Origin: a virus
Taxonomy: Duplodnaviria > Heunggongvirae > Uroviricota > Caudoviricetes
Strand: one strand, 5' to 3'
Length of the DNA: 31,287 bases
Virus record (IMG/VR): IMGVR_UViG_2548876857_000005
Span: 1 to 31,287 of that record
Position 1 is the stretch's first letter. Every line of letters begins with the position of its first letter. This document shows, in pieces, positions 24,001 through 30,000 of this stretch. A program made the position numbers.

Positions 24001-27000
24001 GGGAAAATGCCCGTCTGGGGCTGGCAGCGGCCACGCTGCAGTCGGATATGGAAAAAGCCGGTGAACTGGCTACCAGGGACCGGGCCGAACGGGACGCATC
24101 ACAGCTGAAGTATACCGGAGAGGCGCAGAAGGCGTATGAGCGTCTGCTGACGCCGCTGGAGAAATATACTAACCGGCAGGAAGAGCTGAATAAGGCCCTG
24201 AAAGACGGGAAAATCCTGCAGGCGGATTACAACACGCTGATGGCGGCGGCGAAAAAGGATTATGAATCGACGCTGAAAAAGCCGAAGTCGTCAGGTGTTA
24301 AAGTGTCAGCCGGTGAGCGTCAGGAAGACCTGACGCATGCGGCGCTGCTGGCGCTTGAAACCGAGCTCCGGACGCTGGAGAAGCACAGCGGAGCGAATGA
24401 GAAAATCAGCCAGCAGCGCCGGGATTTGTGGAAGGCGGAGAGTCAGTTCGCGGTACTGGAGGAGGCGGCGCAACGTCGCCAGCTGTCTGCACAGGAGAAA
24501 TCCCTGCTGGCCCATGAGCAAGAGACGCTGGAGTACAAACGCCAGCTGGCTGACCTGGGAGACAAAGTTGAACACCAGAAACGGCTGAATGAGCTGGCAC
24601 AGCAGGCTGCGCGGTTTGAACAGCAGCAGAGTGCGAAGCAGGCGGCAATCAGCGCAAAAGCCCGCGGACTCACCGACCGTCAGGCGCAGCGGGAGTCGGA
24701 AGAGCAGCGCCTTCGTGACGTGTACGGTGATAATCCGGATGCGCTGGCGAAGGCCACATCTGCACTGAAGAACACCTGGTCTGCGGAGGAGCAGCTTCGT
24801 GGAAGCTGGATGGCCGGTCTGAAGTCCGGCTGGGGCGAGTGGGCAGAAAGTGCGACGGACAGTTTTTCGCAGGTTAAAAGCGTGGCCACGCAGACCTTTG
24901 ACGGTATTGCACAGAATATGGCAGCGATGCTGACCGGCAGCGAACAGAGCTGGCGTGGTTTCACCCGTTCTGTGCTCTCCATGCTGACAGAGATTTTTCT
25001 GAAGCAGGCCATGGTGGGGATTGTCGGGAGTATTGGCAGCGCCATGGGTGGTGCTTTCGGTGGTGGGGCGTCTGCCTCCACGGGGACGGCCATTCAGGCT
25101 GCGGCGGCGAACTTCCATTTCGCGACCGGAGGATTTACGGGAACCGGTGGCAAATACGAACCTGCCGGTATTGTCCACCGCGGGGAGTTTGTCTTCACGA
25201 AGGAGGCAACCAGCCGGATTGGCGTCGGCAACCTGTATCGTCTGATGCGCGGGTATGCGGAAGGTGGTTATGTGGGCGGTGCCGGAAGTCCGGCGCAGAT
25301 GCGGCGGGCGGAAGGCATTAGTTTTAATCAGAACAATCACGTGGTGATTCAGAACGACGGCACCAACGGACAGGCGGGGCCGCAGCTGATGAAGGCGGTG
25401 TATGACATGGCCCGCAAGGGGGCGCAGGATGAGATTCAGGCGCAGATGCGTGATGGCGGCGTCTTTTCCGGAGGCAGGCGATGAAAACATTTCGCTGGAA
25501 AGTGAAGCCGGATATGGAGGTGAACTCGCAGCCATCGGTGCGTGAAGTGCGTTTTGGTGACGGGTATTCGCAGCGTATGGCGGCGGGGCTGAATGCTGAC
25601 CTGAAAACATACCGTGTGACGCTTTCCGTGACCCGGGAGGAGGCCCGACATCTGGAGGCATTCCTGGCAGAGCACGGTGGCTGGAAGGCGTTTCTGTGGA
25701 CACCGCCTTATGCCTGGCGGCAGATAAAGGTGACCTGTGCCGCCTGGTCATCACGGGTTCGCATGCTGCGGGTTGAATTCAGTGCCGAGTTTAAGCAGGT
25801 GGTGAACTGATGCAGGATATTCACGAAGAAAGTCTGAACGAGTCGGTTAAATCAGAGCAGTCACCGCGGGTGGTGCTCTGGGAAATTGACCTGACGGTGC
25901 AGGGCGGTGAGCGGTATTTTTTCTGTAATGAGCTGAATGAAAAAGGGGAGGCGGTCACCTGGCAGGGGCGGCAATATCAGGCATACCCGATTGACGGCAG
26001 CGGTTTTGAGATGAACGGGAAGGGCAGCAGTGCCAGACCGTCGCTGACGGTGTCGAATCTGTTTGGTCTGGTCACCGGGATGGCGGAGGACCTGCAGAGC
26101 CTGGTGGGGGCCACGGTGGTCCGCCGCCGGGTGTATGCCCGTTTTCTGGATGCGGTGAATTTTGTGGCGGGCAATCCGGAAGCGGACCCGGAGCAGGAGC
26201 TGAGCGACCGCTGGGTGGTGGAGCAGATGTCAGAGCTGACGGCCATGACAGCCTCGTTTGTGCTGGCAACACCGACGGAGACGGACGGAGCGCTGTTTCC
26301 CGGTCGCATCATGCTGGCGAACACCTGTATGTGGGATTACCGGGGAGATGAATGCGGGTATAACGGTCCTGCGGTGGCGGATGAGTTCGACAACCCCACC
26401 ACGGATATCCGTAAGGACAGATGCAGCAAGTGCATGCGCGGGTGTGAGATGCGCGGCATGGTGGCTAATTTTGGCGGTTTCCTTTCCATTAACAAACTTT
26501 CGCAGTAAATCCAATGACACAGACAGAATCAGCGATTCTGGCGCATGCCCGGCGGTGTGTGCCTGCGGAGTCGTGCGGCTTCGTGGTGAGAACGCCGGAG
26601 GGGGAGCGGTATATCCCTTGTGTGAATATCTCTGCAGAGCCTGAGGCATATTTTCGTATTGCCCCGGAAGACTGGCTGCGGGCAGAGATGCAGGGGGAGA
26701 TTGTGGCGCTGGTTCACAGTCATCCCGGTGGTCTGCCCTGGCTGAGCGAGGCTGACCGGCGGCTGCAGATAAAAAGTGCACTGTCCTGGTGGCTGGTCTG
26801 CCGGGGGAAATTCATAAATTCCGCTGTGTGCCACATCTGACAGGACGGCGCTTTGAGCACGGGGTGACGGACTGTTACACGCTGTTCCGGGATGCCTACC
26901 ATCTGGCGGGAATTGATATGCCGGATTTTGAGCGTGAGGATGACTGGTGGCGCAACGGTCAGAACCTGTACCTGGACAATATGGAGGCGACTGGTTTTTA

Positions 27001-30000
27001 CAGGATTTCCCTGCCTTCCGCACAGCCTGGCGATATCCTGCTGTGCTGCTTTGGCGCATCGGTGGCCAATCATGCCGCCATATACTGCGGCAACGGTGAG
27101 CTGCTTCACCATCTGCCTGAACAACTGAGTAAACGGGAGAGGTATTCCGAAAAATGGCAACGACGAACGCATTCAGCCTGGCGTCACCGCCACTGGCACG
27201 TATCTGCCTTCACGGGGATTTACAACGATTTGGCCGCCGCCTCAGCCTGTATGTGAACACGGCAGCGGAAGCCATCCGTGCCCTGTCGATGCAGATGCCG
27301 GGATTCCGCCGTCAGATGAACGAAGGCTGGTACCAGATACGTATTCGCGGTGAGGACACGGCACCGGAGGCGGTGTACGCCCGTCTTCACGAACAACTGG
27401 GTGAGGGAACGATCATCCACATTGTGCCGCGACTGGCCGGGGCCGGAAAGGGTGGACTGCAGATTGTGCTGGGGGCGGCAGCCATCGTGGGCTCTTTCTT
27501 CACTGCCGGGGCATCAATGGCGTTATGGGGTTCAGCCCTGAGTGCCGGTGGTTTTTCTGCCACCACGATGCTGTTTTCACTGGGGGCCAGCATGATACTG
27601 GGTGGTGTGGCTCAGATGCTTGCCCCGAAGGCAAAAACACCGGATTACCGCGCAACGGATAACGGCAGACAGAACACGTATTTTTCCTCACTGGACAACA
27701 TGATTGCTCAGGGGAACCCGATGCCGGTGCCTTACGGTGAAATGCTGGTTGGCTCACGGCGAATCTCCCAGGACATCAGTACCCGTGATGAAGGCGGTGA
27801 CGGGAAGGTGGTGGTTATCGGGCGGCAGGCATAAAAGCGAAAAAATCCCGCAGTGACCGAAGGCTGCGGGAACAGAAAATGAAGATTAACCACAGGGGGT
27901 TTTGTTTTTATTGGCCCGAAAAACTGTAACGCCCGGGAATGATATCTGCCACGGGGGCGTACAGAAAATGTGAAGAAATTCAGAAATTTTATTCCGTCAT
28001 GACACAGGCACCCTCCGGGGTGCCTGTCGTTTTTGGGGCATAAACAGATTCAGACATCAGACAGGAGAGGGGGACCGAGTGGGTAAAGGTGGCGGCAGGG
28101 CACACACGCCGGTTGAGGCAAAGGACAATCTTAAGTCCACGCAGATGATGAGCGTGATTGATGCCATTGGTGAAGGGCCGATTGAAGGTCCGGTGAAGGG
28201 GCTGCAGAGTATCCTGGTGAACAAAACCCCGCTGACGGACACGGACGGTAATCCTGTGATACATGGTGTGACAGCGGTCTGGCGCGCCGGGGAGCAGGAG
28301 CAGACACCACCTGAAGGCTTTGAGTCCTCCGGGGCGGAAACCGCACTGGGCGTGGAAGTGACGAAGGCAAAGCCGGTGACGCGCACCATTACGTCCGCGA
28401 ACATTGACCGCCTGCGGGTCACCTTCGGGGTGCAGTCACTGTTGGAGACCACCTCAAAGGGCGACCGTAATCCCTCTTCTGTCCGACTGCTGATTCAGTT
28501 GCAGCGTAACGGTAACTGGGTGACGGAAAAGGATGTCACCATTAACGGCAAGACCACCTCACAGTACCTGGCGTCGGTGATTCTGGAGAATCTGCCTGAG
28601 CGGCCCTTTAACATCCGGATGGTCCGGGAGACAGCGGACAGCACCCCGGACCAGCTGCAGAATAAGACGCTCTGGTCGTCATACACCGAAATCATCGATG
28701 TGAAACAGTGCTACCCGAACACGGCGATTGTGGGGCTGCAGGTGGATGCGGAGCAGTTTGGCGGTCAGCAGATGACGGTGAACTACCATATCCGAGGTCG
28801 CATCATCCAGGTACCGTCAAACTATGACCCGGAAAAACGCACGTACAGCGGCATCTGGGACGGCAGCCTGAAACCGGCATACAGCAACAACCCGGCCTGG
28901 TGCCTGTGGGACATGCTGACTCACCCGCGCTACGGCATGGGAAAACGTCTGGTGGCGGCGGATGTTGACAAGTGGGCGCTGTATGCCATCGGGCAGTACT
29001 GCGACCAGACGGTCCCGGATGGTTTCGGGGGCACAGAGCCGCGGATGACCTTTAATGCGTACCTGTCACAACAGCGTAAGGCGTGGGACGTTCTCAGTGA
29101 TTTCTGCTCGGCGATGCGCTGTATGCCGGTATGGAACGGCCAGACGCTGACGTTCGTTCAGGACCGCCCGTCGGATGTGGTGTGGCCGTACACCAACTGC
29201 GATGTGGTGGTGGATGATAACGGCGTGGGGTTTCGCTACAGCTTCAGCGCCCTGAAGGACCGCCACACGGCGGTGGAGGTGAATTACACCGACCCGCAGA
29301 ACGGCTGGCAGACCTCCACGGAACTGGTGGAAGACCCGGAAGCCATACTGCGCTACGGGCGCAACCTGCTGAAGATGGATGCGTTCGGCTGCACCAGTCG
29401 CGGTCAGGCCCACCGTGCCGGGCTGTGGGTGATAAAGACCGGACTGCTGGAAACGCAGACGGTGGATTTCACGCTCGGGTCACAGGGGCTACGTCACACA
29501 CCCGGTGACATTATTGAAATCTGTGATAACGACTATGCCGGGACCATGACCGGCGGACGTATCCTGTCCATCGATGCCGCCAGCCGTACCCTGACACTGG
29601 ACCGTGAGGTGACCCTGCCGGAGACAGGTGCCGCCACGGTGAACCTGATTAACGGCAGCGGTAAGCCGGTGAGCGTGGCCATCACTGCACACCCCGCGCC
29701 GGACCGGATACAGGTCAGCACCCTGCCTGATGGTGTGGAGACATACGGTGTATGGGGACTCTCCCTGCCGTCACTGCGTCGTCGCCTGTTCCGCTGTGTC
29801 TCCATCCGGGAAAACACGGACGGCACCTTTGCCATCACGGCGGTGCAGCACGTACCGGAAAAAGAAGCCATCGTGGATAACGGGGCCAGCTTTGAGCCGC
29901 AGTCAGGCACCCTGAACAGCGTTATTCCACCGGCAGTGCAGCACCTGACGGTGGAGGTGAGCGCGGCTGACGGTCAGTATCTGGCACAGGCGAAATGGGA

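Follow-up and report, generated by a model that had tools for sequence, protein, structure and literature searches.

The 31,287-nt stretch of DNA analyzed here (the window), which is the complete contig AIAY01000037.1 of the Escherichia coli draft assembly GCA_000446525.2, carries the late region of a lambda-like prophage in which the tail tip assembly gene K is split between two reading frames. The lesion is a plain one-base homopolymer contraction; the gene is otherwise conserved, and the split does not amount to a new biological feature. Intact K genes have a run of six G residues (G6) where the window has five (G5), and the most apt description is loss of one G from that tract. As recorded, the locus does not encode an intact member of the family: K here is either mis-called or a pseudogene. 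We give about even odds (0.5) to a consensus artefact, i.e., an under-called homopolymer in the draft contig. If so, a G6 run would have been under-called in the draft consensus and recorded as G5, producing an apparent split of K; the real phage would possess an intact 247-aa protein and the split would have no biological meaning.

Gene K and the one-base lesion

Domain content and position confirm the gene as a homologue of lambda K (TAPK), as an earlier note on this DNA had proposed: it encodes JAB and NlpC/P60 domains and lies between L and I. The same note had placed the two domains in different frames, and both the list of open reading frames (ORFs) and the Pfam matches agree (Table 1). 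The first ORF contains the E...HxH...SxxD motif of JAMM residues (E19, H68-S-H70, and S78-E-A-D81) and matches Prok-JAB (PF14464) with an E value of 1e-15 over residues 3-96, corresponding to profile positions 3-102 of 114. The NlpC/P60 residues C121 (DCYTLF) and H187 (NHAAIY), in the numbering of the restored protein, are in the second ORF. Its match to NLPC_P60 (PF00877; E value 1e-13) spans residues 19-132 of 155, equivalent to 111-224 of restored K, and covers the full profile (1-105). By tblastn, the high-scoring segment pairs for K cover residues 1-100 (frame 3) and residues 98-246 (frame 2). The continuous ORF of ~247 codons typical of the K family is thus split after codon 98. The break, at residue 98/99, removes Prok-JAB profile positions 103-113, and with them the last strand of the JAB fold, and detaches the whole NlpC/P60 domain; the alignment of intact K to the solved JAB protein 2KKS continues to residue 109.

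Aligned with the intact 744-nt K genes of E. coli AMSHJX01 (WP_000194790.1, 247 aa) and phage CP-1639, the window shows one gap only. The gap lies at the G5 tract, at the GGGGGAAA run (about 26804-26810) where the break had been predicted. In the window the tract is followed by AAA (26808-26810), and in both intact genes it is G6. The zero frame reads CGG GGG AAA TTC ATA AAT ... TGA, whereas the -1 frame reads GGG GAA ATT CAT AAA TTC, the authentic ..RGEIHKF.., so that the sequence foreseen after the addition of one base (EIHKF) matches intact K. Insertion of one G yields an ORF of 247 aa, the length that had been anticipated, and its product is residue-for-residue identical to a protein found on 978 contigs. 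The exact 108-aa truncated product, in comparison, is found on only 21-24 contigs. Because the restored protein exactly matches this known protein, the pattern is not due to chance.

The 5' half of K also contains six synonymous differences from the closest K genes, clustered at window positions 26640-26755 (codons 43-80). A window-specific K 39-mer also occurs in K lineages that are otherwise more distant. These codons may represent a small recombination patch, as the sharing of the 39-mer suggests.

The separation of the domains raises the possibility of a natural two-gene arrangement, in which functional JAB and NlpC/P60 polypeptides are made separately, the second by re-initiation at GTG 26828. 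This codon precedes the TGA stop of the first ORF by 10 nt, and the whole NlpC/P60 domain lies downstream of it. K versions with only NlpC/P60 occur in some prophages (Iyer et al. 2006, PMC1779556), but those authors judged them to be probably degenerate. In the PHROGs database, N-terminal and C-terminal fragments of K have separate families: of phrog_2635 and phrog_2552, one matches only the N-terminal 132 residues of K and the other only residues 108-247. Split K calls are therefore common enough in phage records to make up families. Against a two-gene arrangement, none of the candidate starts (GTG 26789, 26828, or 26864) is preceded by a Shine-Dalgarno sequence, the JAB fragment lacks the last strand of its fold, and the split form is sporadic and one homopolymer base away from the common fused gene. 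We regard this arrangement as very improbable.

Recurrence of the contraction and its cause

A 61-nt query centred on the site matched 702 complete E. coli records at 3260 places. An exact G5 copy is present in 14 of these records; the matches in the rest are at 98.4%, the value given by a single gap, and so have G6. A pattern accepting a G5 or G6 run was searched against IMG/VR, metagenome contigs, and species-representative genomes. IMG/VR yielded 106 G6 and 4 G5 sequences among 110 matches. The metagenome contigs, many with SPAdes-style (short-read) names, yielded 27 G6 and no G5, and the species-representative scan gave one match only, the E. albertii type strain, with G6. Approximately 98% of K copies are in frame with G6.

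The G5 copies occur on differing prophage backgrounds, with K and flanking sequence 90-99% identical to the window, and O145 strain RM12275-C1 has G5 whereas RM9872, also O145, has G6 at a chromosomal coordinate close by. In four cases (CP014752.1, GCA_046575665.1, GCA_046575705.1, and IMG genome 2859821903), G5 is found in two different prophages of one assembly, which points to a cause at the assembly level. Of the 15 other G5 loci, 12 have a frameshift in one or more of the neighbouring genes H, M, L, I, and J as well. Counted by gene, frameshifts affect 30 of 48 evaluable neighbours at G5 loci versus 37 of 310 at G6 loci (Fisher p ~3e-12), even though the window's own contig was conservatively included among the G5 loci. 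Two G5 K genes carry three separate 1-nt deletions each. Four of five inspected RefSeq G5 loci (2015C-4498, 20.1, Z1323PEC0010, and AUSMDU00002545) have other genes labelled frameshifted by the Prokaryotic Genome Annotation Pipeline (PGAP) less than 7 kb away; in Z1323PEC0010, K, I, sodC, and J are all broken. The only clean locus of the five is RM12275-C1. In total, neighbouring genes are frameshifted too at 16 of 19 other G5 loci. Among 90 full-length K genes in IMG/VR drafts, nine are broken, most commonly at the G6 tract (4/9). Indel errors thus recur at the K G tract in public assemblies, and G5 is found repeatedly in databases mainly as error. Other G runs in K collapse too in some assemblies: G5 becomes G4 at K nt 87 in 2013C-4991 (codon 29 region) and at K nt 184 in two further loci (L082 and L107).

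We infer the same cause of error in this particular contig. The contraction falls in a homopolymer, and a single additional base suffices to recover a known protein exactly; the allele is sporadic, shows no lineage inheritance, and occurs elsewhere in error-prone assemblies. Further, the rest of the late region looks like that of a working phage, so any lesion must be either very recent or not real.

Several observations weigh against an artefact, beginning with the absence of other signs of indel error in the contig. For 32 genes a homologue was identified in the relative L005, whose annotated proteins were used for comparison. Besides K, 29 of these occupy one frame over their full length, and J runs without interruption up to the contig end. 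No frameshift was found among the 31 other comparable genes; the sole difference is in a small DUF3927 ORF, whose 3' end is altered. The blastn indel list against two relatives contains no other 1-nt indels in the coding late region. The 54 other homopolymers of at least six bases, which include A8, T8, and six G6/C6 runs, are associated with no frameshift in the compared genes, and 9,029 nt align gap-free with the independent assembly L163. An assembly this clean is less likely to mis-call one G6 run, and an error in the consensus there would be unlikely if accurate short reads underlie it.

Real frameshifts and decay are common in resident lambdoid prophages, and slippage is naturally frequent at G/C runs. 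K may instead be a true pseudogene, produced in the prophage by a recent slipped-strand deletion from G6 to G5, an alternative that we rate only a little below an artefact. It is consistent with the otherwise indel-free contig, and single 1-nt indels break K in about 6 of the 90 full-length IMG/VR draft copies, with the G6 tract the commonest site. At least two other G5 loci, RM12275-C1 and L116, also have clean surroundings. Counted on the same side is the requirement of lambda for gpK in tail assembly (PMC12617516). However, the allele is a singleton: searches of complete E. coli genomes and IMG/VR found no G5 sibling of the same haplotype. The complete E. coli genomes contain no sequence with more than 99.3% identity over K or more than 98.2% over 19 kb, and the seven IMG/VR contigs that share the window-specific 39-mer have K genes at most 95% identical overall and are uninformative regarding inheritance of G5. 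Most other G5 records are clearly artefacts, none of the 27 metagenome contigs has G5, and all other late genes and cos are pristine in the window, all of which argues against a genuine deletion. The earlier note had offered a genuine lesion or a homopolymer sequencing error, and this is the right pair of alternatives: elsewhere G5 is mostly found in indel-ridden assemblies, and this contig is otherwise clean.

If the recorded tract is real, it could in principle act as a leaky or switchable site, with any of three routes restoring exact wild-type K (..CRGEIHKF..). These are a -1 slip of the P-site tRNA-Gly, with GGG 26805-26807 re-pairing with 26804-26806; addition of an extra G by RNA polymerase; and reversion of G5 to G6 in replication. 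The consequence would be low-level K or revertant phage. After a slip at GGG, the -1 frame (GAA ATT CAT AAA TTC) would give the authentic protein, and gpK, which has not been detected in the lambda virion, may suffice in small amounts (PMC10721106). In the zero frame, however, G GGG AAA does not form a canonical in-phase X XXY YYZ heptamer. G5 is conserved in no lineage, and the predominance of in-frame G6 gives no hint of selection for a shift site. A five-G run is also short for efficient transcriptional slippage. Overall we think a leaky or switchable site very improbable, although low-level leakiness is conceivable given the sequence. Programmed -1 ribosomal frameshifting was considered and rejected, as there is no slippery heptamer in phase and the two-frame arrangement is not conserved. 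Even more speculative, and likewise very improbable, is a slippage-prone switch for phase variation of phage infectivity, whereby revertible or leaky tail-defective lysogens would make just enough of the non-structural K.

The surrounding late region

The tail genes around K are listed in Table 1. The gene order in the window is hokD, DUF968, RusA, Q, DUF1737/SASA esterase, holin, lysozyme, and Rz. The genes after cos are Nu1/A-type terminase, portal, S49 protease, D, E, FI, FII, Z, U, V, G, T, H, M, L, K, I, and J, and the contig ends within J. The order H-M-L-K-I-J, identified by tblastn with L005 proteins, is as in lambda. The L stop is 5 nt upstream of the K start, and the GTG start of I overlaps the K stop (GTGA), a start placement that PGAP also uses in three other loci (L001, L002, and L004). 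The prophage left arm, with the integrase, immunity, and replication genes, is not on AIAY01000037.1, and overall prophage integrity therefore cannot be judged.

Table 1. Positions in the window of K, its contracted tract, and the adjacent tail genes
Feature	Coordinates	Strand	Remarks
H (tape measure)	22905..25484	+	Intact
M	25481..25810	+	Intact
L (minor tail protein L)	25810..26508	+	Intact; 100% identity over 232 aa to the L005 L protein
K, 5' part	26514..26840	+	108 aa; 98 authentic codons and 10 out-of-frame codons (KFINSAVCHI), TGA stop
K, mechanical ORF of the 3' part	26789..27256	+	155 aa; GTG start at 26789
G5 tract, site of 1-nt contraction	26803..26807	+	G6 in intact K genes; from alignment, blastn indel list, and codon view
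K, 3' part	26807..27256	+	-1 frame; residues 99-247 of restored K; whole NlpC/P60 domain
I (tail assembly protein I)	27253..27834	+	Intact; tblastn covers 1-191 of 192 aa in a single frame
J (central tail fibre)	28079..31287	+	1069 codons uninterrupted; cut by contig end

The cos region is lambda-like, with an exact cosN (GGGCGGCGACCT) at 12209-12220. Upstream of cosN (window 12060-12220), comparison with two E. coli relatives shows gaps of 7 nt and 1 nt, both of which also occur in lambda. We considered the 7-nt gap as a second defect but rejected this, as lambda shares the arrangement and cosN is exact.

The difference in the DUF3927 ORF traces to a T missing at ~5330 (GGGG-GCTGG versus GGGGTGCTGG in two relatives; window 5230-5400), which alters the 3' end. 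This allele is probably real, because the independent assembly L163 aligns without gaps there and has the same allele. The ORF follows a region where L005 and L006 carry a TerB-family pseudogene.

At the left contig end, a 252-aa ORF (299-1057) adjoins hokD (1396-1548). Its counterpart in L163 matches the Pfam family SBP_bac_11 (periplasmic solute-binding), and it is probably a moron or cargo gene. Q is at 3812-4633, and the DUF1737/SASA esterase (645 aa) is at 5711-7648. The interval between them is the position where Shiga toxin (Stx) phages carry tRNA genes and stx. Between Q and the esterase (window 3812-7648), we identified no tRNA genes and no ORF of at least 90 aa that could be stx. An exact-protein look-up found the same esterase on O157 prophage contigs, by the thousand; of these only L163 is closely related to the window, and in the left 9 kb only.

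Consequences and comparison with known systems

If the contraction is genuine, the K product would be a 108-aa JAB fragment without its last strand, with little or no NlpC/P60 part made. By analogy with lambda, and as the earlier note proposed, loss of K would be expected to block tail-tip formation. Lysis, head assembly, and DNA packaging would still be possible, because Q, the lysis genes, cos, terminase, the head genes, and the remaining tail genes are intact. Infectious particles would be few or absent unless K from another prophage helps. Where an E. coli genome contains such a K gene, the median copy number is three, so K of a co-resident lambdoid prophage could complement the defect. 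More broadly, one miscalled G run in K, or one slippage event there, is enough for an otherwise complete lambdoid prophage to be classed as defective in automated intactness calls, and the same K site fails repeatedly in public assemblies.

The G5 allele is already known, and in that respect there is nothing new in the window. Several complete E. coli genomes in RefSeq (e.g., 2015C-4498, 20.1, Z1323PEC0010, AUSMDU00002545, and RM12275-C1) contain K pseudogenes that PGAP labels 'C40 family peptidase, frameshifted' and that have the same G5 allele, at the same site, with the same 108-aa product. Most of these loci have further frameshifted neighbours (H, I, J, or sodC), whereas the window has none.

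A -1 shift in a tail-assembly gene is also a feature of the lambda G/GT programmed frameshift (G GGA AAG), which likewise involves a G-rich sequence followed by A's and where the shift gives a longer product. Unlike G/GT, the window lacks a canonical in-phase heptamer, and the shifted arrangement is not conserved, with 98% of homologues in frame.

A further comparison is with lambda gpK (TAPK; 'C40 family peptidase' in PGAP) itself, which is encoded at the same place, between L and I and upstream of J, and has the same two domains. Restored K of the window is 85% identical (211/247) to gpK of re-sequenced lambda. Unlike lambda, the window encodes no full-length K. In the lambda reference record (J02459 / NC_001416), K is likewise seemingly truncated or split, in that case to 199 aa, by one base missing from the record. 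The site differs, lying at codon 45 with no long homopolymer, and the omission is a reference error documented by several independent re-sequencings. Reference K is 743 nt, versus 744 nt in re-sequenced stocks (e.g., PV340536, LC730321, and lambda imm21), and HK629/HK630 and DE3 match over 744 nt. The reference lacks one G after nt 14266 (NC_001416 K locus 14133-14875; positions 1134-1876 of L166, compared with L167, L168, and L169), and the 14266 C>CG difference has also been reported for lambda-gt10 in MutaMouse (PMC6760142). Once this G is added, the start of lambda K falls 5 nt downstream of L and the product is 247 aa long, with NlpC/P60 and a complete JAB domain. The 199-aa gpK, which is quoted in recent reviews (e.g., PMC7291167), starts at an internal ATG because of the omission. 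This is of some practical use for modelling and annotation of tail tips: the true lambda gpK has 247 aa and a complete JAB domain, unlike the 199-aa form still found in structural papers. For the artefact explanation of the window's K, the lambda reference is a precedent for false truncation of this gene by one missing base.

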